From NCBI RefSeq assembly GCF_965276855.1, contig NZ_OZ255700.1, positions 2,912,971-2,976,970 on the forward strand: a DNA stretch of 64,000 nucleotides. Reading direction: 5' to 3'. The position numbers and the translations under genes are program-made. Each line of letters opens with the position of its first letter. Position 1 is the first letter of the stretch. Source of the stretch: Roseibium sp. Its GTDB lineage: Bacteria > Pseudomonadota > Alphaproteobacteria > Rhizobiales > Stappiaceae. Shown here piece after piece: positions 3,768-19,337 of this stretch. The notes beneath the pieces are model-generated. The model did not search any database, had not been told where the DNA came from, and saw nothing but the letters and a program-made list of their open reading frames with translations.

Positions 3768-6700
3768 TTGGCGATAAGAAAAATTCTCGTTGCGAACCGG
3801 TCTGAAATTGCAATCCGGGTTTTCCGGGCTGCCAACGAACTCGGTCTGAAGACCGTTGCGATCTATGCCGAGCAAGACAAACTGGCTCTGCATCGGTTCA
3901 AGGCTGATGAGGCGTATCAGGTCGGCAAGGGGCTTGGCCCGATCGAGGCCTATTTGTCCATCGACGAGATTATTCGTGTTGCCAAACATTCCAACGCTGA
4001 TGCCATCCACCCGGGCTACGGCCTGTTATCGGAAAGCCCGGAATTCGTGGACGCCTGCGAAACGGCCGGGATCACCTTTATCGGACCGAAATCCGAGACA
4101 ATGCGCCGTTTGGGCAACAAGGTGGCCGCACGGAACCTGGCAATTGAGGCTGGCGTACCCGTCATGCCGGCAACGGACCCGCTTCCTGATGATCTGAATG
4201 AGATCAAGAAGCAGGCTCTGGAGATCGGCTACCCGGTGATGTTGAAAGCGTCCTGGGGCGGCGGTGGCCGTGGCATGCGGGTCATTCCGGATGAAGCGAC
4301 CCTTGAAAAGGAAGTGCTGGCTGCCAAGCGGGAAGCCAAGGCCGCCTTCGGCAAGGACGAGATTTATCTGGAGAAACTGGTTCAACGGGCGCGCCACGTC
4401 GAAGTCCAGATCCTTGGGGACGGTGAAACCGTTGTCCATCTCTTCGAGCGGGATTGCTCGATCCAGCGGCGCCACCAAAAGGTGGTCGAGCGGGCCCCGG
4501 CACCTTATCTCGATGAGGCCAAGCGCGCCGAGCTTTGCGAGTACGGTCTGAAAATCGGTCGGGCGGTGAACTATCGCGGCGCGGGCACTGTCGAGTTCTT
4601 GATGGATGCAGACACGGGCGCGATTTACTTCATCGAGGTCAACCCTCGGGTCCAGGTCGAGCACACGGTGACCGAAGAAGTCACCGGCATCGATATCGTC
4701 CAGGCACAGATCCACATCGCAGATGGAGAAAAGATCGGAACGCCGGAAAGCGGTGTGCCGGCGCAGGAGAACATCCGCCTTAACGGTCATGCGCTGCAAT
4801 GCCGGATCACCACGGAAGATCCGGAGCAGAATTTCATTCCGGATTATGGCCGCATCACCGCGTATCGCGGCGCGACCGGTTTCGGTATTCGTCTCGATGG
4901 CGGGACCGCCTATTCAGGGGCGGTGATCACCCGGTTCTATGATCCGCTTCTTGAAAAAGTGACGGCCTGGGCGCCGACGGCCGAAGATGCGCGCAAACGC
5001 ATGGACCGCGCCTTGCGCGAGTTCCGGATCCGCGGAGTTGCGACCAATCTGGTGTTTTTGGAAAACATCATCGATCATGCCGATTTCCGCGCCCAGACCT
5101 ATACCACCCGCTTCATCGACGACACGCCCGCGCTGTTTGAACAGACAAAACGCCAGGATCGTGCAACCAAGCTGCTCACCTATATCGCCGATGTCTCGGT
5201 GAACGGGCATCCGGAAACCAAAGACCGGGTCCGTCCGCCGAAGGATGCTGCTGCGCCGGTCGTGCCGGATTTCGGTGATGAGAAACCGAAGGGAACGCGG
5301 CAGCTTCTGGATGAGCTCGGTCCGAAAGGTTTCGCTGACTGGATGAAGTCGGAAAAAAGAGCGCTTCTCACCGACACGACCATGCGTGACGGCCACCAGT
5401 CTTTGCTGGCGACCCGCATGCGCTCCCACGACATCGTCAACATCGCAGATGCTTATGCGACCGGTCTGCCGACGCTCTTTTCCCTGGAATGCTGGGGCGG
5501 TGCCACATTCGACGTGTCTATGCGTTTCTTGACGGAAAGCCCCTGGGAGCGGCTGCATCAGATCCGCGAGCGTGCGCCGAATATCCTGCTTCAGATGCTG
5601 TTGCGGGGCTCGAACGGGGTTGGTTACACCAACTATCCGGACAATGTGGTCAAGTTCTTCGTCCATCAGGCGGCCGAAAACGGCGTGGATCTTTTCCGCG
5701 TCTTTGACTGTCTGAACTGGGTTGAGAATATGCGCGTTTCCATGGATGCGGTCCAGGAAACCGGCAAACTCTGCGAGGGTGTGCTCTGCTACACCGGCGA
5801 CATGCTGGATAGTGCGCGCCCGAAGTATGATCTGAAATACTACATCAATCTGGCCAAGGAACTGGAGGCAGCCGGTGCCCATATCCTTGGCATCAAGGAC
5901 ATGGCAGGGTTGTTGAAGCCGCAGGCTGCCAAGATCCTGGTGAAAGCACTGAAAGAAGAGGTCGGCCTGCCGATCCACTTCCACACCCATGACACCTCCG
6001 GCATTGCGGCCTCCACCATTTTGGCAGCCGTCGAAGCCGGGGTCGATGCAGTCGATGCGGCCATGGATGCCTTGTCCGGTCTGACGTCGCAGCCGTGCCT
6101 TGGATCTATTGTCGAGGCGCTGCGGGGCACGGACCGGGATACCGGACTTGATGCAGCGACAATCCGCCAGATTTCCTTCTATTGGGAAGCTGTTCGCGCG
6201 CAATACAGGGCCTTTGAGAGCGACCTTCGCTCAGGAGCCTCAGAGGTTTATTTGCACGAAATGCCGGGCGGCCAGTTCACCAACCTGAAGGAACAGGCGC
6301 GGTCCCTCGGTCTTGAAACCCGTTGGCACGAAGTTGCTCAGGCTTATGCCGATGCCAACCAGATGTTTGGCGACATCGTCAAAGTGACGCCGTCCTCCAA
6401 GGTGGTTGGCGATATGGCGCTGATGATGGTGAGTCAGGGTCTGAGCGTTGCCGATGTCGAAGATCCTGCCAAGGACGTTGCCTTCCCGGACAGCGTCGTG
6501 AAGATGCTGCACGGTGACCTCGGTCAGTCTCCTGGCGGATGGCCACAAGCGCTCCAGGACAAGGCGCTTAAAGGCGAAAAGCCGATTACGGTGCGGCCGG
6601 GCTCGTTGCTGGATGATTCAGACCTTGAAGCGGAACGGGCCGCTGCCGCTGCCGCGACGGGTCATGACATCGATGACGCTGAGCTCGCGTCCTATCTGAT

Positions 6701-8827: not shown

Positions 8828-8937
8828 AAATGTTTTTCACTGTCCGAGCGGCGCAGGATTGCGCTGCGGATTTTTCAAAAAAGCATGCAGATCGGGTCTC
8901 CGGCCGGCTGCATTGCCCCGGATTTAGGAACACTCCA

Positions 8938-10200
8938 ATGAAATCCTTCACGCGCGCGCTTCTTGCGGCAACAACCCTTCTGGCAACGCCTGCAATGGCC
9001 GCAGCGCCTGCCGATGTTCTCGGCACATACAGCGATATTGCCTTTGCCAAGTATTCCGATTCTCTTGAAACAGCGAAAACGCTCCAGAGCGCAATCGACA
9101 AGCTGATTGCCGAACCGACCGACGCCAATCTAGCTGCGGCGCGCAAAGCGTGGATCGAGGCCCGTAACCCGTATCAACAGACAGAGGCCTACCGCTTCGG
9201 CAATGCCATTGTCGATGATTGGGAAGGCAAGGTGAACGCCTGGCCGCTGGATGAGGGACTGATCGATTATGTCGACGTTTCCTATGGCGAAGATTCCGAA
9301 GAGAACGCGTTTTATGCAGCCAACGTAATCGCCAATCCGACCCTGAAAGTCGGGGGTGAGACCATCGATGCCAGCGTGATCACGCCGGCTCTTCTGGCCG
9401 AATCCCTGCAGGAAGCAGGCGAAGTTGAAGCCAACGTGGCCACCGGTTACCACGCAATCGAATTCCTGCTTTGGGGACAAGATCTCAACGGTACGGATGC
9501 GGGTGCCGGCAATCGTCCGGCCAGTGATTTCGATGCAGCCAACTGCACGGGTGGCAATTGCGAGCGCCGGGCGCAATACCTCAAAGCTGCCACGGATCTT
9601 CTGATTACAGATCTTGAGGAAATGGTTGCTGCCTGGGCACCGGGCGGAGCTGCGCGCGAAGAACTGGGCGGCAAGGGGGAAGCCGGCGGTCTGGCGACCA
9701 TCCTGACCGGAATGGGCTCTCTTTCTTATGGCGAGCTGGCGGGTGAGCGGATGAAGCTTGGCCTCATGCTTCATGATCCGGAGGAGGAGCATGATTGCTT
9801 CTCAGACAACACGCACATGTCTCACTACAACGATGTTGTCGGCATCCGGAACGTCTATTTCGGTGAGTACAAGAGCCCGCTCGGCAACGATGTGAAGGGC
9901 GCATCCCTTGCAGAGATGGTCGCCGCGAAAGATCCGGCTCTGGCCGAAGAAATGCAAACCAAGCTGGATGCCACGCTGGCCGCATTCGAGGCGATGAAAG
10001 CGCGCGCCGAAGCCGGTGAAGCGTATGACCAGATGATCGGCGAAGGCAACGACGAGGGCAACGCTGTTGTTCAGGCTGCTGTTGATGCGCTGGTTGACCA
10101 GACCACGTCGATCGAGCGTGTCGTCAAAACGCTTGAGCTCGACGAGATTGCTTTCGAAGGCTCCGACAGCCTTGACAATCCGTCCGCTGTTTTTGAGTAA
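8938..10200 (+). CDS. irpA: Imelysin family iron-regulated protein A (IrpA/IcmP-like)
   Basis: Signal peptide MKSFTRALLAATTLLATPAMA, VNAWPLDEGLIDY, TGYHAIEFLLWGQD (GxHxxE), EHDCFSDNT. ATG at 8938. Confidence 0.92.
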   Translation: MKSFTRALLAATTLLATPAMAAAPADVLGTYSDIAFAKYSDSLETAKTLQSAIDKLIAEPTDANLAAARKAWIEARNPYQQTEAYRFGNAIVDDWEGKVNAWPLDEGLIDYVDVSYGEDSEENAFYAANVIANPTLKVGGETIDASVITPALLAESLQEAGEVEANVATGYHAIEFLLWGQDLNGTDAGAGNRPASDFDAANCTGGNCERRAQYLKAATDLLITDLEEMVAAWAPGGAAREELGGKGEAGGLATILTGMGSLSYGELAGERMKLGLMLHDPEEEHDCFSDNTHMSHYNDVVGIRNVYFGEYKSPLGNDVKGASLAEMVAAKDPALAEEMQTKLDATLAAFEAMKARAEAGEAYDQMIGEGNDEGNAVVQAAVDALVDQTTSIERVVKTLELDEIAFEGSDSLDNPSAVFE

Positions 10201-10207
10201 GACCCAT

Positions 10208-10234
10208 GTGGCGGGTGGCTCTGCTACCCGCCAT
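10208..10234 (+). other. Intercistronic stem-loop after irpA
   Basis: GTGGCGGGTGGC-TCT-GCTACCCGCCAT with no U-tract; could stabilise the irpA part of the transcript. Confidence 0.45.
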
Positions 10235-10287
10235 TATTCCCCGCCGGAATTGGGGCTCGGGCGGGCGTAAATCAGGATGCGAACCTT

Positions 10288-11817
10288 ATGACTGTCCCAG
10301 GACAAAGCGCCATTTTGGGCGCTGCTGTTTTATGTGCGGGCCTGATTGGCCAGACCGCCTTGGCCGATGGGCTGTTGAGCCATCGCGATGATCTGTCAGA
10401 GCAGGACCGGGCCAAGGTTGTAAGCGTCCTCCCGCTCGCCGATGATTTTTCCAAGGCAGAAACCTTTGAACAGATGCAGGGCGGTGCCGGTACGTCCCGC
10501 AAGCGCATCAACCGCGATGCTTTTTCTCATGCCACTGCAAATCTGACGTTCGAGCAAGAGCAAAATTTCAAGGTTGGCAACGGGCTTTTCAAGAAGCTCT
10601 GGGCCTCGTCGCCCGCATCCACCAAAGCGTCCGACGGGTTGGGCCCACTTTACAACGCACGCTCCTGCCAGGGGTGCCACCTGAAGGATGGCCGCGGGCG
10701 GCCGCCGCGTCCGGGCGATGAGGCGGTTTCTCTCTTCCTGCGCCTTTCCATTCCGCCACAATCGGACGAAGACCGGGCGGCCCTTCAGGACAAAAGACTG
10801 CTCCGCATTCCGGAGCCCACATATGGCGGGCAGTTTCAGGCATTTGCTGTCCCAGGCCTTGCAGGGGAAGGGCGTTTCGACATTGAACACGAAGAGATCG
10901 TGGTCCCGCTGAATGGCGGCGAGACGGTTATCTTGCAAAAGCCCGTCTACAAGATCCGGGATCTTGGATTTGGCGACATGCATCCCGAAGCCTTGATCTC
11001 GCCGCGGGTCGCACCGCCGATGATTGGTCTCGGATTGCTGCAGGCGATTCACCCCGGGGATATTGAAGCCTTGGCGGATCCGGATGATCTCAATGGCGAC
11101 GGGATCTCCGGCAAAGTCAGCCGGGTCCGGGACGGCCGGACGGGTGAGCTGACCATCGGCCGGTTCGGCTGGAAGGCCTCCAACCCGAACATCCGCGATC
11201 AAACGGCCGGTGCCTTTTCCGGTGATATCGGCATCAGTTCACCGGACAAGCCGGACAATTATGGCGATTGCACACAACGCCAGACCGAATGCCGAGTCTT
11301 GCCGCACGGCGAACAGGCGCATCTTGGGGTGTCGGAAGCGCCTGATCCGGTCATGGAATTGGTAACATTCTATTCGGAGAACCTGGCAGTTCCAGCCCGG
11401 CGCGATGTATCTGATCCGCAAGTTCTGCGTGGCAAAAAGCTGTTTTACGAAGTGGGCTGCGCCAAGTGCCATCAGCCGAAGTTTGTCACGCGCCGGGATG
11501 CGGAAACTGAGGCGCATCAGTTTCAGCTGATCTGGCCCTATACGGATCTCTTGCTGCACGACATGGGCGAAGATCTGGCCGACAACCGCCCGGTTGGCGA
11601 TGCGACCGGCCGCGAATGGCGGACCCCGCCGCTTTGGGGCATTGGCTTGACCGAAACGGTCAACAATCATACCCGTTTCCTGCACGATGGCCGGGCGAGC
11701 AATTTGCTCGAAGCGGTCCTGTGGCACGGCGGGGAAGCGAAAGCTGCCCGCAATCAGGTGGTCGCCATGGAGCCGGACGACCGCGTCTCTCTTATCCGGT
11801 TTCTGGAGTCCCTTTGA
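10288..11817 (+). CDS. Di-heme oxidoreductase (DHOR) family c-type cytochrome
   Basis: Two heme motifs CQGCH and CAKCH, DGLGPLYNA, WRTPPLWGIGL, LHDGRA; export signal at the N-terminus. Confidence 0.92.
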   Translation: MTVPGQSAILGAAVLCAGLIGQTALADGLLSHRDDLSEQDRAKVVSVLPLADDFSKAETFEQMQGGAGTSRKRINRDAFSHATANLTFEQEQNFKVGNGLFKKLWASSPASTKASDGLGPLYNARSCQGCHLKDGRGRPPRPGDEAVSLFLRLSIPPQSDEDRAALQDKRLLRIPEPTYGGQFQAFAVPGLAGEGRFDIEHEEIVVPLNGGETVILQKPVYKIRDLGFGDMHPEALISPRVAPPMIGLGLLQAIHPGDIEALADPDDLNGDGISGKVSRVRDGRTGELTIGRFGWKASNPNIRDQTAGAFSGDIGISSPDKPDNYGDCTQRQTECRVLPHGEQAHLGVSEAPDPVMELVTFYSENLAVPARRDVSDPQVLRGKKLFYEVGCAKCHQPKFVTRRDAETEAHQFQLIWPYTDLLLHDMGEDLADNRPVGDATGREWRTPPLWGIGLTETVNNHTRFLHDGRASNLLEAVLWHGGEAKAARNQVVAMEPDDRVSLIRFLESL

Positions 11818-12890
11818 TGAAGCGAATTCTTGTCTCCGCGGCTGCGGCCCTGATGACATGGCCGGCAGTTGCAGCTGATCTCACGCAGCCCGTCGAGAAG
11901 ATGATTGCCGGTTACATTCAGCCTGAAACCAGAATTTTTGCTGATGTTGCAGCCCGCTTGCCTGAGGCGGTCAAAGAGGTCTGCCAAGAACCGACGGATG
12001 AGGCAAAGGCTGATTTCAGGGTTGTTTTCTCAGATGCTGTTGGTCAGTTTGCCCGCATCCATTTCCTGCGGCTTGGCCCCCTGATTGAAGAAGATCGCAT
12101 CAGCCGTCTCGCTTTCCAGCCGGATCCACGTGGCATTGCACAAAGGCAGATCCGCAAGCTCTATGGGGCTCAAGATGAGAGCGTAAGGACGGCGGAAAGC
12201 CTGTCCGAAAAAAGTGTGGCTTTGCAAGGGCTGACAGCGCTTCAGTTGATTGCATTCGACAAGACCGGCGCCGTCGTGCTTGGCGAAGAGGGGGAGCGCG
12301 GGGACTTCACGTGTTCTTATGCGCTGGCGATCTCTGAGAATGTTGCCGGCATTGCCCGGGACGTCATGCGCTCCTGGCTCGATGCGGATGGTTTTTCGAA
12401 AACTCTTCTGGAAACAGGCGGCAACAACGTCCGTTATCAGACCGACCAGGAAGCCTTGGAAGATGTGTTTCAAACGCTGTCCACGGCGCTGATCGTCGTT
12501 CGGGACCAAAACATTGCGCCAGCGCTTGGAAGCTCGAAAGAGAAGGCGAGGCCAAACCGGATTCCGTTCTCCCGGTCCGGCAATGGCGTTGTATTTCTGA
12601 CATCCGAAATGAACGGCATTCTGGACGCGATCCAGAGCATGGATCTCGAACCCATGATGCCGGAGGAACACGCCTGGCTGATCGGGTCGATGACCTTTGA
12701 GTTCGAAAACGCCTTGAAAACACTCAATCAGCTCCAGTCGCCTTTGCGGGAGACGTTTGAAGCATCTGGTGCCCATAGCCAGTTGTCGCTCTTGGTCATC
12801 TCTTTGAATTCCCTTCAGCGGCTTGTTGGTGAGCGGGTCGCGGGCGCGTTGGGACTGGCCGGAGGGTTCAATGCCCTTGATGGTGACTAG
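11817..12890 (+). CDS. Second imelysin-like protein
   Basis: ATG overlaps the DHOR stop (TGATG). Signal peptide, RISRLAFQPDPRG, QGLTALQ, LGLAGGFNALDGD C-terminus typical of this family. Confidence 0.85.
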   Translation: MKRILVSAAAALMTWPAVAADLTQPVEKMIAGYIQPETRIFADVAARLPEAVKEVCQEPTDEAKADFRVVFSDAVGQFARIHFLRLGPLIEEDRISRLAFQPDPRGIAQRQIRKLYGAQDESVRTAESLSEKSVALQGLTALQLIAFDKTGAVVLGEEGERGDFTCSYALAISENVAGIARDVMRSWLDADGFSKTLLETGGNNVRYQTDQEALEDVFQTLSTALIVVRDQNIAPALGSSKEKARPNRIPFSRSGNGVVFLTSEMNGILDAIQSMDLEPMMPEEHAWLIGSMTFEFENALKTLNQLQSPLRETFEASGAHSQLSLLVISLNSLQRLVGERVAGALGLAGGFNALDGD

Positions 12891-14022
12891 GCCGGTCGAG
12901 TTTACCAGGCGTGGGTTTTTGTCCGCGTTGGGCGGACTGGCTGCACTGCCGGCTTTTGCGGGATCCGGTCTCGGGGCGAGTTTGCTGAGCTCATCAGATG
13001 CACCGCTCTTTGCCAGCGCTTTCAAAAAGTCTGCAGGCGGATATGGCATAGCTGTGTTCGACGATCTGGGTCAGATCCAGGCGGAAATCACACTGCCCGG
13101 GCGCGGTCACGGCATTGCGGTATCCGATACGGGAGATTGCCTAGCCGCTTTTGCCCGCCGCCCGGGAACATTTGCGATCGTTGCCTGGCCATATTCCGGC
13201 AAGCCAATGCAGACCATCGTTGCCGCCCTCGGCCGGCATTTTTACGGGCACGGCTGTTTTTCAAAGGACGGGCGAATTCTCTTCGCGGTGGAGAATGATT
13301 TTGCGTCTGCTCGCGGTGTTGTCGGCGTCTATGACGTGAGTGGAGAGACCATCACCCGGCTGGGCGAACTCGACAGTCACGGCATCGGTCCGCATGAGGT
13401 TCTGTTGAGACCGGATGGCAATGTCCTGATCGTTGCGAACGGCGGGATTGAAACGCACCCCGATCACGGGCGGGAAAAGCTCAATCTGGAGACAATGTCG
13501 CCATCCGTGGTGTTCCTGGATGTCAAAACCGGAGACCTGCTGGCAGAGCATCGTTTGGATAAATCCCTGCACCAGTTGTCTTTGCGTCACATGGCTTTGG
13601 ACGGGGCAGGCCGGGCCTGGGTTGGTGGGCAGTTTGAAGGCTCGAAGACAGACACTCCGCCGCTGGTTGCCGTCATTTCAAGGGATGAAACGCCGGTTTT
13701 GTTGGACCTGCCCGGGAAGCTTATGGGCCAGCTTGAAAACTATATCGGGTCTGTGACGGCCACCATAGATCAAAGTGTGATTGCAACGTCCGCGCCGCGT
13801 GGCGGCAAGACCTTGTTCTGGAATGCGGAGACCGGGGACTATCTTGACCACCAAAACATCTCTGATGGGTGCGGTGTTGCCCCTATTGATCAGGGAAGTT
13901 TTCTGATCTCCGACGGAAATGGTGGCGTTTCCTATCTCTCAGAGCCAGGAGAGCGGGCGGAAATACTGGCCCGACCCGCAGGTTTTGCGTGGGACAATCA
14001 CATGACGGCTCTTCGGATCTAA
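12880..14022 (+). CDS. DUF1513 family Tat-exported beta-propeller protein
   Basis: Tat motif TRRGFL, RGHG, FARRPG, RHFYGHG, GIGPHE, ANGGIETHPD, WDNH C-terminus. Confidence 0.88.
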   Translation: MVTRPVEFTRRGFLSALGGLAALPAFAGSGLGASLLSSSDAPLFASAFKKSAGGYGIAVFDDLGQIQAEITLPGRGHGIAVSDTGDCLAAFARRPGTFAIVAWPYSGKPMQTIVAALGRHFYGHGCFSKDGRILFAVENDFASARGVVGVYDVSGETITRLGELDSHGIGPHEVLLRPDGNVLIVANGGIETHPDHGREKLNLETMSPSVVFLDVKTGDLLAEHRLDKSLHQLSLRHMALDGAGRAWVGGQFEGSKTDTPPLVAVISRDETPVLLDLPGKLMGQLENYIGSVTATIDQSVIATSAPRGGKTLFWNAETGDYLDHQNISDGCGVAPIDQGSFLISDGNGGVSYLSEPGERAEILARPAGFAWDNHMTALRI

Positions 14023-14167: not shown

Positions 14168-17086
14168 ATGCAACGGCTTTTGATCGGTCTGGGCAGCTTC
14201 CTGTTTCTGGTTGTCACCGCTCTTCTTGTGGTTCCGTTTTTCCTGCCCAAGGATCAGATCAAGCAGCAGGTGGTCCAACAGATCGACAACCGCTTCGGTT
14301 GGCGTGTCCGGCTCGATGGCCCTGTTTCATTGTCACTGTTTCCCGGCTTTCAATTGACAGCTGAAGATATCGGTATCTCCGGTGCCGCTGGCGCGGACGG
14401 TATTGAGTTCGCCAAAGCCAAACGCATGGACTTCGGTCTTGCCTGGTCTGGGCTACTGTCGGGCAATGTGAAAGTTACCGGCATCGCACTCGACGAACCG
14501 CTGATCTATCTCGAGAAAAACGCAAACGGCGCCACCAGTTGGGCACCGCGCCGGTCATTGGAAGTTCTGACCGGCGAGGCAGAAGAAAGCAGCGCTCCGG
14601 CAGGTGATAGCGCGCAGTCCACGCCGGACAGCGGTGCAGATAACGCTGCGGCTGATGCCGGCGAGGGATACCTGGAGAGCATTGGTGTCGACAGTCTCCA
14701 GATCACCAACGGCGAGCTGACCTACATTGATGCCACAGCAGATCAGAACTTTGTCATTCAGGCCCTCAATCTGTCCCTGACTGCCCCGGATTTGACCGGA
14801 GATGTCCAGCTTACTTCCGATTTCCAATTTCAGGACGTTCCTCTCGAGGTTTCGGGCACGTTGTCCAACCCGCTGGGATTGGCATCCGGCGACCAGGTGC
14901 CCGTCGATTTGGCTCTGACTTCGTCAGAAAACTCCATCACGATCAAGGGGACCACAGGACTGGAGCCGGTCCGTGCTGAACTCGCGATCGCTGCGTCAGG
15001 ACCGTCGTTAAAAACTCTAGCCGCGCTGGGCGGACAGTCGCTCGATGCAGATCCAGGCGCTTACCAGTTTGATGCACAAGTGCGGGGCTCTGAAGCAGCG
15101 GTCTCAGTGTCAGATCTCCATCTGGTATTGGGCCAACTTTCCCTTGGCGGTGCGGCCGATGCGGATCTCTCTGGGTTGGTGCCGGAAGTCTCCGGTCGGC
15201 TTGTCCTGAAAGACGGGTCGATTGCGGATTTGTTGCTTCTCGCCGGTCAGGAGCTGCCGGCAAGCGGGCTGTTGAGCGCCGATCTGGCATTTGAAACGGT
15301 TGGCCTGACAGGTGAAGAAATGCTGGCCGGACTAGACGTCAACGGATCGGTCAACATCTCCGAAGGTGAAATTGGCGGATTGGGCCTCGCAGATGCTGTC
15401 GGCGGCGACCCGGAAGCCGACCGGATTACCGGACTGTCTCTTGCTCTAGAGATGCAAGGACTTGAAGCCCCACTGTCTGCAAGCGGTGCACTGACCTGGC
15501 GCGGAGAACGGTTCAGTCTGACTGGTGAAGCCGATACGTCCGAACTGTTGGCAGGCCAATCCGGCGGAGTTTCTGTCTCTCTCAAGGGCAATCGGCTGAG
15601 CGTTGGATTTGATGGATCAGCTCAACTGCCAAGCACTGTGGATGGCGCAGCTCGGGTACAAACGGCCGACCTTCGAGGTTTGATGGCCTGGATGGGCCAA
15701 CCCTTGGCCGCCGGTGGTGGCTTGGGTGCGTTTAGTGCCTCCGGGATTTTCGGGTTCCAGGGGGACACGATTTCGTTCGAGGAGACACGCTTCACGCTGG
15801 ATGAAACCTCCGGCGAAGCCAATGGCCGTGTGACCCTGGGCGGTAAGCCGACGGTGACGGCGCGTCTTGATTTGCGCGAGCTCGTTTTGGATCCCTACCT
15901 TGCCGGCGGGCCATCCAGTCGCCAACCGGGCGGTCAGTCTGGAGGCGAGGGCGGTTCGGCTCCGGAAACAGTGGCGTCAGCTGCACCTCCTGCCGGCGGC
16001 ACATTCTGGAGTGCAGCGCCAATCGACTTTTCGGGTCTTAGAGCTGCGAATGTCGACTTCAAGGCAACTGCAAACGAGATCCGTATGGACAAGATCCGGA
16101 TTGGACAAAGCGCGCTCTCGGTTGCGATCCAGGATGGCGTTCTGACGGCGGATCTTGAGAAACTGTCGCTTTACGAAGGCACAGGCACGGGCTCCGTCAG
16201 GCTGAATGGCGCAGCTGCAACACCTGCAGTGTCGGCAAAGTTTGATCTCTCCGGCTTGAATGCCTATCCGCTTCTACGGGATGCGGCGGACTTCACCTGG
16301 ATCGAAGGCAAAACGCTCATTGGCCTGGATGTAACAACGTCAGGAGCCAGCGAGCAGCAAATGGTTCAGAACCTCAAAGGCACCGCCAGCTACATGTTTG
16401 AAGACGGCGCAATCCGCGGGATCAATATTCCGCAGATGGTGCGCAGCCTCTCAGTTGAGACCTTGCTTGGATGGCAGGCGAGCCCCTCCGAGAAGACGGA
16501 CTTTTCGTCGCTCGGGGCTTCTTTTCAGATCGAAAACGGAATTGCGACCACCAGTGACCTGTCTCTGATCGGGCCGTTGATCCGCATGAGCGGCGGCGGC
16601 ACCACGGATATGCCCAATCAACGGCTGTCCTGGCGGGTGGAGCCGAGAATTGTGGCGACACTGGAAGGCCAGGCTCCGATGCCGCGCCCGAAAGGCACCG
16701 ACAAGAAAATGGCCGGTCTGGGTGTACCTATTGTAGTGGATGGGTCCTGGAGTGATCCGCGTATCTATCCGGATATTGCAGGCATTCTGGAAAATCCGCA
16801 GGCGGCCTACGAGCAGCTTGAGCAAGTCGGTGGTGAACTAATTTCGATCCTGAAGGGCGAGGCGGATGTGCCGGAAAGCCTGACCGACACCGCCAATCAG
16901 GTGATCCAACGTGCCACTGGTGGTCAAACCCAGATCGACATCGAAAAGGTGATCGAAGGGGACGTCAACGACGAAGACGTCCTGAAGGCCGTGGAAGAGG
17001 GCTTTGGTTTGCCTCCTGGTTTGCTCGGCAACGTCTTTGGCCGCCAGAAGGCGCAAGAGCCGGAGCAAGCCCAGGACCAAAACTAA
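14168..17086 (+). CDS. asmA: AsmA family protein
   Basis: N-terminal TM anchor, beta-taco repeats, LYEGTGTG, GAIRGINIP, KTDFSSLGASFQIENGIATTSDL (AsmA C-terminus). Confidence 0.88.
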   Translation: MQRLLIGLGSFLFLVVTALLVVPFFLPKDQIKQQVVQQIDNRFGWRVRLDGPVSLSLFPGFQLTAEDIGISGAAGADGIEFAKAKRMDFGLAWSGLLSGNVKVTGIALDEPLIYLEKNANGATSWAPRRSLEVLTGEAEESSAPAGDSAQSTPDSGADNAAADAGEGYLESIGVDSLQITNGELTYIDATADQNFVIQALNLSLTAPDLTGDVQLTSDFQFQDVPLEVSGTLSNPLGLASGDQVPVDLALTSSENSITIKGTTGLEPVRAELAIAASGPSLKTLAALGGQSLDADPGAYQFDAQVRGSEAAVSVSDLHLVLGQLSLGGAADADLSGLVPEVSGRLVLKDGSIADLLLLAGQELPASGLLSADLAFETVGLTGEEMLAGLDVNGSVNISEGEIGGLGLADAVGGDPEADRITGLSLALEMQGLEAPLSASGALTWRGERFSLTGEADTSELLAGQSGGVSVSLKGNRLSVGFDGSAQLPSTVDGAARVQTADLRGLMAWMGQPLAAGGGLGAFSASGIFGFQGDTISFEETRFTLDETSGEANGRVTLGGKPTVTARLDLRELVLDPYLAGGPSSRQPGGQSGGEGGSAPETVASAAPPAGGTFWSAAPIDFSGLRAANVDFKATANEIRMDKIRIGQSALSVAIQDGVLTADLEKLSLYEGTGTGSVRLNGAAATPAVSAKFDLSGLNAYPLLRDAADFTWIEGKTLIGLDVTTSGASEQQMVQNLKGTASYMFEDGAIRGINIPQMVRSLSVETLLGWQASPSEKTDFSSLGASFQIENGIATTSDLSLIGPLIRMSGGGTTDMPNQRLSWRVEPRIVATLEGQAPMPRPKGTDKKMAGLGVPIVVDGSWSDPRIYPDIAGILENPQAAYEQLEQVGGELISILKGEADVPESLTDTANQVIQRATGGQTQIDIEKVIEGDVNDEDVLKAVEEGFGLPPGLLGNVFGRQKAQEPEQAQDQN

Positions 17087-17197
17087 CTCTGGATCAATTC
17101 CGCCTCCACAACCGCTACGCAACCTCCGATGAATATAGCGGATAGAACTAAACTATGATTAGAATTTCCCGGAAATCAACTTCTGGGGGAAAATTAT

Positions 17198-18742
17198 ATG
17201 ACTAATCTCATAGTTTGTTGTGACGGTACCTGGAACACACCTGATGATGAGGCCGACGGCGTCCCAACACCAACAAATGTTGTCAAGATAGCCGGTTGTG
17301 TTGCTTCAGTAGATGCATCGGGAAAAGAGCAAAAGAAATACTACCACCCAGGTGTTGGAACAGACGGCGGAGTTATCGATAGTCTTGCTGGTGGTGGGTT
17401 GGGTGTTGGTCTGGGGGATAATGTAAAAAGCGCCTACAAATGGCTTTCCGTCAATTATCAACCAAACGATAAGATCTTCCTCTTCGGTTTTAGTAGAGGT
17501 GCATTCACTGTTCGAAGCTTGGCAGGCATGATTGGCGCATGTGGCTTGCTGGATCTAAGTAGCCCTCAATTGACAGAGGCGAAACTGTGGCGGCGGGTCG
17601 ACAAGGTGTTTGCCAATTACCGCCGGAAAAAACCGGATCCGAGCAAATTGAAGGGAATGGACTTTCATAATGCCGGTTCTGATAGGATTGGAGCTGGGAA
17701 AACACCTATTCATTTTCTTGGGGTTTGGGATACCGTCGGAGCTTTAGGTATTCCGGATGAAGTGGCGTTTTTGAATCTGCTGGACAATCCGAAAAAACAT
17801 GGTTTCCACGATACCAAACTCAGCAATCTGGTAATGCATGCTCGGCATGCGGTGGCGATGGATGAGCAGCGGCGGAGTTTTACACCGACCCTTTGGACAA
17901 ACCAGACTGCACACAATGACATAAAGCAGATTTGGTTCCCAGGAGTACACTCTGATGTTGGGGGTGGCTACCCGCAAACCGGGCTTTCAGATGGTGCTTT
18001 GCTGTGGATGTTAAAGGAAGCGGAGGCTAGCGGTCTAGTTTTCCGGGAGGGAGCGGTAGCCCAAATTGATCCCAATCCTCTCGATGTCCTGCATGACTCA
18101 TTGTCCGGCGCATTTAAAGCCCTGACAACACGGCCTCGCAGTGTTCCATGTATTAGTGGAGTTAAGGCACCGAAAAATTTTCATGTCTCGGCCTTGGAAC
18201 GGCAGGCCAATCCCCCGCTTGCACAACCTGATTATTGGCCGTCGAAGACCCTTTCAGTCAGGGAAATGACGACGGTTGATGTTTTCGCTAGAGAAAAATG
18301 GAACTCGACAGGACTATACCTGGAAAAAGGAAAGACATACGAGTTTTCTGCACTTGGAGAGTGGGTCGACAGGTCGATCAAATGCGGACCGAGTGGAACG
18401 AAAGACGGCAAATTTTCACCGGGGGAAGTGTTCCACGTGGCGGGAGCAGCGCTTGGTTCGATCGAGACTATCTTTAAAAAGGTTACTGGGAATGATGAGG
18501 CCAACTTTTGGTTGACCCGGAGGTATGAGGACGTCGATTGGTTTGCTCTGGTAGGTGTGATTGCGAATGGAAAGGGAATTGGGAAAAACAGCAGGTTAAT
18601 TGAGCATGAAGTTTTTGTTATAGGCAATGGCGTGACTTATACTCCGAAGTCGGGTGGATACCTGTATGCCTTCGCCAACGATGCTTGGCAGATGTATTTC
18701 AACAACAAGGGTAGTGTGAGGCTTTCCGTCAAACGGGCGTAA
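17198..18742 (+). CDS. DUF2235/Tle1-like alpha/beta hydrolase with C-terminal LecA(PA-IL)-like domain
   Basis: VCCDGTWN, GFSRGA (nucleophile Ser), VWDTV, HAVAMDEQRRSF, FPGVHSDVGGGY. C-terminus ends YAFANDAWQMYFNNKGSVRLSV. Visibly more AT-rich than its flanks. Confidence 0.85.
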   Translation: MTNLIVCCDGTWNTPDDEADGVPTPTNVVKIAGCVASVDASGKEQKKYYHPGVGTDGGVIDSLAGGGLGVGLGDNVKSAYKWLSVNYQPNDKIFLFGFSRGAFTVRSLAGMIGACGLLDLSSPQLTEAKLWRRVDKVFANYRRKKPDPSKLKGMDFHNAGSDRIGAGKTPIHFLGVWDTVGALGIPDEVAFLNLLDNPKKHGFHDTKLSNLVMHARHAVAMDEQRRSFTPTLWTNQTAHNDIKQIWFPGVHSDVGGGYPQTGLSDGALLWMLKEAEASGLVFREGAVAQIDPNPLDVLHDSLSGAFKALTTRPRSVPCISGVKAPKNFHVSALERQANPPLAQPDYWPSKTLSVREMTTVDVFAREKWNSTGLYLEKGKTYEFSALGEWVDRSIKCGPSGTKDGKFSPGEVFHVAGAALGSIETIFKKVTGNDEANFWLTRRYEDVDWFALVGVIANGKGIGKNSRLIEHEVFVIGNGVTYTPKSGGYLYAFANDAWQMYFNNKGSVRLSVKRA

Positions 18743-18773
18743 GCGAAAAGCCGGAGGATACTATGTCGGGCGT

Positions 18774-19337
18774 TTAAAGGTGCAAGGCAGTCATCATTGC
18801 GGAAACCGCCGTCTCTATGGTGCCGGTGTTTTCAATCCGGATGAGGTTCGGAACGTTCTGCGGTTCCAGATCCGCCCGTTTCAAACGGGCTTCGATGTCC
18901 TCGCGGGTTTCCCGGCCCCGGGCGGCGAGGCGTTCTGCTAAGATCTCGATCGGGGCGGTGATCAAAAGGACGATCGCCGTTTCATATTTGTCTGAGGCTT
19001 CTTGCAGCACCTTGCGGGAGCCGTTGGCGATGACCGTTTTGCCGTCCCGAATTACGCGGTCATATGATTGGGGCACAACATACCCCAATCCATGGGCTTC
19101 CCAGGAAAGGGCCACGTTTCCGGCCGAGACAAGGGTCTCGAAGTCCGACCGGCTCAGCGTGTCGTGATCTTCAGAACTGGCATCGGCATCCCGGGTGACC
19201 GCGCGCCGGGCAAAAACAACGCTGTCGTTGCCTTCCAGGCGGTCTTTCAAGGCGGCCATAAGCGTGTCTTTACCGGCCCCGCTGGGACCGACAACGAGAA
19301 CCATCCGTCCCGGGCCGATTTTGTCCTGCGCATGCAT
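18774..19337 (-). CDS. phnN: Ribose 1,5-bisphosphokinase PhnN
   Basis: VVGPSGAGKDTL, WEAHGLGY, IANGSR, RLAARGRE. Likely ATG at 19337. Confidence 0.93.
   Translation of the reverse strand: MHAQDKIGPGRMVLVVGPSGAGKDTLMAALKDRLEGNDSVVFARRAVTRDADASSEDHDTLSRSDFETLVSAGNVALSWEAHGLGYVVPQSYDRVIRDGKTVIANGSRKVLQEASDKYETAIVLLITAPIEILAERLAARGRETREDIEARLKRADLEPQNVPNLIRIENTGTIETAVSAMMTALHL

Follow-up and report, generated by a model that had tools for sequence, protein, structure and literature searches.

The window analysed here is a stretch of 64,000 nucleotides from the genome of Roseibium sp. (contig NZ_OZ255700.1). At positions 17198–18742 of its forward strand it contains an uninterrupted open reading frame (ORF) with an ATG start, which according to the ORF listing and its translation encodes a protein of 514 residues plus the stop codon. 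The product combines an N-terminal hydrolase of the DUF2235 family with a C-terminal β-sandwich domain that has the fold of the lectin PA-IL (LecA). The α/β-hydrolase module, delimited by means of Pfam and Foldseek, comprises residues 1–340 (17198–18217). The PA-IL/LecA-fold domain, named C-domain in the following, comprises residues 357–514 (18266–18739) and was assigned on the basis of Foldseek, hhalign and the best PDB sequence match, which is PllA, the LecA homologue of Photorhabdus. These and all other features of the gene described below lie on the forward strand. A Shine-Dalgarno-like GGGGGA, seen on inspection of the sequence, occupies positions 17185–17190, 7 nt 5' of the ATG.

An AlphaFold2 (AF2) model of the complete 514-residue protein had a predicted local distance difference test (pLDDT) value of 87.3 and a predicted template modelling score (pTM) of 0.89; the latter suggests that the two domains may adopt a fixed arrangement. 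A preliminary description of this DNA had already listed the ORF and the motifs GFSRG (residues 97–101), WDTV (177–180) and GVHSDVGG (249–256), all of which are present. The strings quoted there for the C-terminal part were found as well, from about residue 357 onwards; only their numbering has to be corrected, as "TVDVFA" begins with residue 359 (nucleotide 18272), whereas the position 18266 given for it is that of residue 357.

The hydrolase and the LecA-fold domain

The Pfam family PF09994 (T6SS_Tle1-like_cat, formerly DUF2235) matches residues 3–274 with an E-value of 2.5e-82 and a score of 276.9 bits, compared to a cut-off of 27 bits, and the match spans positions 2–287 of the 287 profile positions. 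The three motifs expected for this family align with those in Tle1, a type VI secretion system (T6SS) effector from enteroaggregative Escherichia coli (EAEC; chain 6sjl). The nucleophile elbow GFSRG (17486–17500), which contains Ser99 (17492–17494), corresponds to FGFSRGA with the serine at position 197; WDTV (17726–17737) with Asp178 (17729–17731) corresponds to FDTV with the aspartate at position 245; and GVHSDVGG (17942–17965) with His251 (17948–17950) corresponds to GAHSDIGG with the histidine at position 310. Thus, the HMMER alignment pairs S99, D178 and H251 with positions 197, 245 and 310 of 6sjl, which we take to be the published catalytic triad of EAEC Tle1. A Ser-Asp-His arrangement in the Tle1 family is also described in the TleB paper (PMC12421835).

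Across 43 aligned full-length homologues, Ser99, Asp178 and His251 do not vary, and 103 of the 106 homologues with a length of at least 440 residues possess the three catalytic motifs in intact form. Beyond the PF09994 core, the alignment columns of H299, P313, R314, P317 and R335 indicate a conserved extension. When the full-length model was compared with the PDB by means of Foldseek, the top matches were Tle1 of P. aeruginosa (4o5p, E-value 7.6e-12), TleB of Xanthomonas (9j3f, 4.4e-9) and EAEC Tle1 (6sjl, 5.3e-9). On account of the Pfam match, the conserved triad motifs and these fold matches, we regard the protein as a bona fide member of the DUF2235 hydrolase family, which is probably active.

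For the C-domain, sequence comparison gave at first sight little more than a hint. Scans with Pfam and NCBIfam produced no PA-IL match and merely a sub-threshold one to M60-like_N. PllA, the best match among PDB sequences, was found with an E-value of 0.077 for the single sequence and of 0.054 with a 35-sequence profile, which is insufficient alone; the sequence identity to LecA and PllA is 15–23%. The structural comparison was clearer. An AF2 model of residues 340–514 (pLDDT 84, pTM 0.80) was submitted to Foldseek, and the top 11 PDB matches were all LecA (2vxj, 1l7l, 4cp9), PllA (5ofz, 5odu) or EclA-N, the PA-IL domain of EclA (6ygq). Their E-values were between 2e-6 and 2e-5 and their template modelling (TM) scores between 0.68 and 0.82, if normalised on the length of the lectin; the next match followed with an E-value of 5e-3, i.e. 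about three orders of magnitude weaker. The full-length model, which was built from a different alignment, recovered the same lectins with TM scores of 0.72–0.82.

An independent line of evidence came from a sequence bridge. An exhaustive phmmer search for the C-domain over 1.84 billion representatives yielded 831 clusters. One protein, P0153, matches the C-domain with an E-value of 4e-20 and at the same time passes the Pfam cut-off for PA-IL (53 versus 22.5 bits). Comparing the profile of the gene's family with the PA-IL repeats of P0153 by means of hhalign gave a probability of 98.9% and an E-value of 2.2e-17, and the whole domain was covered; the repeat profile of P0153, in turn, matches PDB chains of the PA-IL family (LecA, PllA, EclA-N) with E-values from 4.5e-4 to 0.17. 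It is the agreement of the two fold searches with this bridge that turns the marginal hint into a result: residues 357–514 belong to the PA-IL/LecA lectin superfamily as a diverged member. Hence, the resemblance to LecA noticed in the preliminary description is real and far beyond chance, and the AlphaFold/Foldseek comparison proposed there did find the LecA jelly-roll, so that the idea was not overturned by the fold. P0153 is a secreted protein with four tandem PA-IL repeats; in P0162, another protein from the phmmer search, which is also secreted and has a length of 1591 residues, BACON domains alternate with PA-IL-like repeats.

Within the C-domain, a Ca2+-binding loop is predicted at D495-A-W-Q-M-Y-F-N502-N503-K-G505 (18680–18712), with ligands spaced as D, +4 (main chain), +7 and +8. 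In EclA-N, three side chains (D114, D121 and N122) and two main-chain oxygens (N54 and Q118) coordinate the Ca2+ ion (PMC11875179). The alignment with LecA numbers the same loop D100, T104, N107 and N108, and the spacing of D495, M499, N502 and N503 is identical to that of the ligands in both lectins. In LecA, D100, N107 and N108 contribute their side chains to Ca2+ coordination, and Y36 and T104 their main chain. As far as can be judged from the aligned residues, the three side chains that would bind Ca2+, namely D495, N502 and N503, are kept. In the 150 family members whose C-terminus is complete, the residue at D+8 is asparagine in all 150 cases and the one at D+7 is asparagine or aspartate in 139; D+2 is tryptophan in 141 and D+5 tyrosine in 146 of these proteins.

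The situation is different for the sugar-binding segment. LecA and this protein share a G-P-x-G motif (G43–G46 and G398–G401, respectively), but the LecA residues D47-R-E-H50-P51-D-Q53-G54, of which we take H50, P51 and Q53 to be the galactose contacts, are replaced by T-K-D-G-K-F-S-P-G-E, which is followed by a helix (residues 411–430). In total, about 45 residues are added. The alignments to LecA and to the PA-IL repeats, together with DSSP and the pLDDT values of the models, define this family-specific insert with its long helix as residues 402–445 (18401–18532). The replacement segment is conserved in the family, and the flanks of the helix are of low confidence in the models. Because the galactose-contact loop has given way to this insert, a sugar specificity cannot be read from the sequence. 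Consequently, the "Ca2+/galactose signature" of the preliminary description holds for its first half, as the loop YxFANDxWxxYxNNxG does correspond to the Ca2+ loop of the lectins, whereas the galactose half has to be given up. The hydrolase site and the Ca2+ site are both under purifying selection.

Distribution, architectures and genomic setting

A pattern scan for the C-domain over 185,579 species genomes detected relatives in at least 386 of them; the number is a lower bound, since the patterns are specific. Among the Alpha-, Beta- and Gammaproteobacteria, carriers belong to Roseibium/Labrenzia, Rhizobium, Sinorhizobium, Methylopila, Accumulibacter, Dechloromonas, Pseudomonas, Mangrovibacter and Rouxiella; further ones occur in Campylobacterota, Planctomycetota, Acidobacteriota and Sumerlaeota. 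Of 301 Pseudomonadota genomes sampled evenly, 76 contain DUF2235 and 20 the C-domain, and in 16 of the latter both were in the same frame. A set of 80 homologous loci from named genomes was used to study gene neighbourhoods, and 75 of these loci encode the full fusion in one ORF. No conserved partner gene emerged from clustering the neighbours: none is common to more than 12 of the 80 loci. The 147 immediate flanking genes are distributed over 109 Pfam families, the most frequent ones being FTHFS (6), TonB receptors (5) and GntR (5), and PADLOC gave only scattered matches among them. To judge from the full fusion in 75 of the 80 loci, the common frame in 16 of the 20 genomes with the C-domain and the three architectures described below, all of which contain the pair, hydrolase and C-domain have been inherited together as a unit across hundreds of species, and their coupling is obligate. 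The rarity of the fusion implied by the preliminary description does not agree with this survey. Its proviso that the domain might be a routine part of the DUF2235 family applies in part, as the C-domain accompanies DUF2235 in at least 16 of the 76 DUF2235-positive genomes.

Reading the ORFs, three architectures can be distinguished. Type A has about 515 residues and is represented by the gene studied here; in type B (420–505 residues) the hydrolase is more divergent and the insert shorter. In type C, which has about 780 residues, approximately three hydrophobic helices separate the hydrolase from a LecA-like domain that is rich in cysteines (4–6 Cys). Examples of type C are the loci L094 (G118:C17), L095 (G256:C22) and L101 (G186:C204). 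In L094, one loop contains 1 and the next 14 lysine or arginine residues; following the positive-inside rule, the protein would have an N-in/C-out topology, with the hydrolase in the cytoplasm and the lectin-like domain in the periplasm. Note that the topology of type C is deduced from hydropathy and charge counts. A different combination was seen at L102 (G322:C38:1127-3277), which encodes a protein of 716 residues that combines a membrane anchor at the N-terminus with a PA-IL-like domain, tetratricopeptide (TPR) repeats and a caspase domain of the Peptidase_C14 family, an undescribed fusion of the LecA fold.

In the Roseibium genome, the upstream neighbour of the gene belongs to the AsmA family. 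On the other side, convergent to the gene, lies the phn operon for phosphonate C-P lyase on the reverse strand (18774 to about 26400 of the window), which contains phnN, phnM, a DUF1045 gene, two genes for ABC ATPases, and more. The adjacency of the gene and phn is not conserved outside this genome. The G+C content of the gene is 49.2% (48% at third codon positions, GC3), that of the neighbouring genes 58–60% (GC3 62–70%). Only 3 of the 25 genomes of the genus contain the gene, at merely about 55% identity. In the nearest relative (positions 4468–5039 of locus L092, compared with 17085–18819 of the window) the flanks are 92–93% identical; there, the slot between asmA and phnN is occupied by a gene for a membrane protein of 134 residues (DUF805), without any trace of a DUF2235-LecA gene. 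The intergenic slot between asmA and phnN is a variable site, and the gene is taken to be a horizontally acquired accessory insertion in it. A search for repeats around the gene gave short chance matches alone, and neither insertion scars nor ends of mobile elements were detected.

Some further observations were made in the surroundings. Upstream of asmA, a cluster of imelysin, di-haem oxidoreductase (DHOR), imelysin and DUF1513 genes extends from 8830 to 14022 on the forward strand and constitutes a putative iron-uptake system. The G+C content drops to 0.48–0.51 between 32001 and 36000, compared to a window mean of 0.56, and this region may be another acquired island. Matches to PhnN in three genomes of the same genus (G015:C24, G017:C5, G012:C1) contain one or two in-frame TGA codons, perhaps an artefact caused by extension of the alignments. 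The palindrome TTCCCGGAAA (17160–17180), located in AT-rich intergenic DNA about 25 nt 5' of the start codon, could be an operator. A scan for promoters and terminators around the gene gave scores no better than those of shuffled sequence. The adjoining phn operon prompted an inspection by eye of the region upstream of the gene, and no Pho box was seen. A link to phosphate starvation was dropped, as other genera do not have the gene next to phn.

Localisation and mode of action

The N-terminus MTNLIVCCDGTWN runs directly into the first strand of the hydrolase core. A hydropathy scan detected neither a signal peptide nor a transmembrane segment in this protein or in the other homologues of about 500 residues. 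The family PF09994 includes the T6SS effectors of the Tle1 type (P. aeruginosa Tle1, PA3290, 4O5P; EAEC Tle1, 6SJL; Xanthomonas TleB, 9J3F), with which our protein shares triad motifs and fold. These effectors share their loci with genes for VgrG, a DUF4123 chaperone and immunity proteins of the periplasm; their site of action is the periplasm of the target (PMC12421835). They have a length of 560–890 residues and carry helical membrane-anchoring or "shovel" domains at their C-terminus, whereas the protein studied here has 514 residues and a β-sandwich C-domain of the lectin fold. The genes of its family lack the partner genes of the effectors, and they occur in genomes without a T6SS.

Accordingly, three contextual features of T6SS effectors were looked for, i.e. 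linkage to VgrG, PAAR or DUF4123 adaptors, an immunity gene, and a T6SS in the carriers, and the assignment to the Tle1 effector class was rejected on these grounds. Pfam families for VgrG, Hcp, PAAR, DUF4123 and immunity proteins are absent from the 147 genes flanking the homologous loci. The Roseibium locus has no adaptor linkage either, its neighbours being asmA and phnN, and no cognate periplasmic immunity gene of the Tli1 or DUF3304 type is adjacent. The gene is the only DUF2235 gene of its genome, and the only T6SS sheath gene (tssC) is located 2.1 Mb away. Among 40 carrier genomes, 20 gave no TssC/VipB match, including the complete chromosome of Rouxiella badensis and the chromosome of a Dechloromonas metagenome-assembled genome (MAG). 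As T6SS and immunity genes are missing from the neighbourhoods and half of these carriers are devoid of TssC, the family is not a T6SS effector family, and the protein is not a T6SS toxin.

For the function we favour the following reading, to which we would give an even chance. The protein may be an intracellular acyl-ester hydrolase, or one without dedicated delivery, in which a Ca2+-dependent LecA-like module binds a ligand and thereby selects the substrate or gates the enzyme. It would be a soluble, non-exported enzyme of two domains. Its hydrolase would be an esterase, most probably an acyl-hydrolase of (phospho/glyco)lipids like the characterised Tle1 proteins, and would work within the producer, either on a soluble ester or at the inner membrane, on its cytoplasmic side. 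Through its Ca2+ site, the LecA-like module would bind a ligand rich in hydroxyl groups, such as a sugar, a polyol or the head-group of a lipid, and binding would determine the choice of substrate or else activate the hydrolase.

Several points weigh against this reading. The Pfam model of PA-IL (PF07828) does not directly match the protein or the C-domain, even at an E-value of up to 10, and in the alignments to LecA and to the PA-IL repeats the galactose contacts H50 and Q53 of LecA have no identifiable counterpart; because of both findings we consider the C-domain a new diverged branch of the PA-IL superfamily and not an orthologue of LecA. The cytoplasm of bacteria contains little free Ca2+, which is awkward for a Ca2+-dependent lectin in this compartment. 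Moreover, LecA reaches the cell surface without a signal peptide, and for this reason the missing signal peptide does not prove that the protein acts in the cytoplasm. If hydropathy and charges are taken as a guide, the membrane probably separates the lectin-like domain from the hydrolase in the variants that span it. Finally, the closest precedent for a kept Ca2+ site combined with lost galactose residues, EclA-N, has no known ligand (PMC11875179).

The main rival reading, which we consider rather unlikely, dispenses with the sugar: the C-domain would be a Ca2+-triggered module for membrane docking or oligomerisation, comparable to the C2 domain of cytosolic phospholipase A2, and an influx of Ca2+, e.g. 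upon damage of the envelope, would make it recruit the hydrolase to anionic phospholipids. This would explain why the Ca2+ ligands are conserved and the residues for sugar specificity are not, and an amphipathic-looking helical insert lies beside the Ca2+ loop in the models. It is also in line with the phospholipid substrates of the catalytic family (PMC12421835) and with the oligomerisation of LecA-family proteins via this fold (PMC11875179). However, all domains of the PA-IL family with known ligands bind sugars, relatives of the C-domain co-occur with the glycan-associated BACON modules, and two near-invariant aromatic residues of the Ca2+ loop, W497 and Y500, would be typical of stacking on a sugar. 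The type C variants suggest yet another role. With a periplasmic lectin-like domain and a cytoplasmic hydrolase, their predicted topology favours a sensor over a substrate-binding function of the LecA-like domain, and it is on this basis that the LecA-fold module could be a ligand sensor which gates the DUF2235 lipase, and not a targeting lectin, so that the family would be a hitherto unrecognised one-protein signalling device. We hold this to be unlikely for the family. If it were true, a Ca2+/glycan-type signal from the envelope, or an intracellular one in case of the soluble form, would be converted into the hydrolysis of the cell's own membrane lipids or of a lipid-like messenger; this might serve to remodel the envelope, to respond to stress or to mount an abortive defence.

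A secreted, lectin-guided phospholipase was the idea of the preliminary description: exported via the T6SS or another route, the protein would bind galactosylated glycans or glycolipids on the membranes of a host (alga, coral, sponge) or of a competitor and would then cleave them. The catalytic domain is indeed from the family of the T6SS Tle1 effectors, the Roseibium genome possesses a T6SS, LecA-type lectins bind glycolipids of host cells (PMC8350385), and the gene is a low-GC accessory gene like many effectors. Nevertheless, we regard this reading as very unlikely. Characterised Tle1 effectors lie in operons of VgrG, chaperone and immunity genes (PMC12421835), whereas neither here nor in the 80 homologous loci a VgrG, PAAR or DUF4123 adaptor or an immunity gene adjoins. 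There is no signal peptide, tssC is remote, and carriers without it include complete genomes; the galactose-contact residues of LecA are not kept; and the carriers are mostly free-living bacteria of soil, water and sludge. For the same reasons, to which the missing transmembrane segment and the lack of any conserved neighbour may be added, an action on host or competitor membranes is not supported. Even less probable is, in our opinion, a single-gene anti-phage or stress system, in which the LecA-like domain would detect a molecule associated with infection and free a membrane-degrading lipase, so that the infection is aborted. The patchy distribution, which resembles that of horizontally transferred genes, the low G+C content and the variable slot would fit, as would the coupling of two domains reminiscent of a sensor-effector pair and the membrane-spanning variants, which suggest signalling; a few homologous loci also adjoin the defence genes SspH, MADS and AriA. 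These are, however, a handful among the 147 neighbours, scans of the protein with PADLOC and PHROGs gave no match, and the neighbours in Roseibium (asmA, phn operon) are housekeeping genes.

Known relatives and significance

The similarity to LecA of P. aeruginosa and to PllA comprises the jelly-roll (TM score about 0.8), the Ca2+ motif D-x3-x-x2-N-N-x-G with its conserved tyrosine, and N-terminal strands of the form W-x-x-[ST]-G...G-x-W, which are common to both. In contrast to these stand-alone tetrameric lectins of about 121 residues, which bind α-galactosides, the C-domain is fused to an enzyme and has an insert of about 45 residues in place of the H50-P51-x-Q53 loop. The combination of a Ca2+-binding or glycan-binding β-sandwich with a hydrolase, which is positioned or activated by it, follows a logic known from cytosolic phospholipase A2 (C2 domain and lipase) and from carbohydrate esterases with carbohydrate-binding modules (CBMs), although folds and families are unrelated. 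EclA of Enterobacter cloacae resembles our protein in that a PA-IL domain is fused to a second domain and has kept the Ca2+ site but lost the galactose residues (PMC11875179); it differs as its PA-IL domain is N-terminal and the partner is a fucose-binding lectin domain and not an enzyme. In a 2024 paper, EclA was called the first LecA domain fused to another domain (PMC11875179). A pairing of DUF2235 with a lectin occurs also in chimeras with jacalin-related lectins, which are listed in a table of a review on jacalin-like lectins (PMC5536079); these are eukaryotic, have a β-prism fold, and the entry in this domain table is given without functional data.

Full-text searches of the literature found no paper that links DUF2235 or Tle1 with LecA or PA-IL, which agrees with the preliminary description, whose author knew of no characterisation of the fusion; structure-based domain databases may already label the domain. 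The architecture is thus widespread, solid and uncharacterised, and the PA-IL branch is new.

LecA is a much-studied drug target, and to our knowledge the fold was believed to be restricted to a small number of stand-alone lectins. The findings show that this fold is used far more widely, as a dedicated partner of an α/β-hydrolase family, and that fusions of the LecA domain are much commoner than EclA alone would suggest. The pair of sites formed by Ser99 on the one hand and D495, N502 and N503 on the other provides a concrete starting point for seeking substrate and ligand. As far as we know, the DUF2235 α/β-hydrolases have so far been familiar only through the Tle1 toxins of the T6SS, and genome annotation as well as programs predicting T6SS effectors routinely label DUF2235 proteins as such effectors. 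With at least 16 of 76 DUF2235-positive Pseudomonadota genomes carrying the fusion, a substantial share of the DUF2235 proteins are not T6SS effectors.

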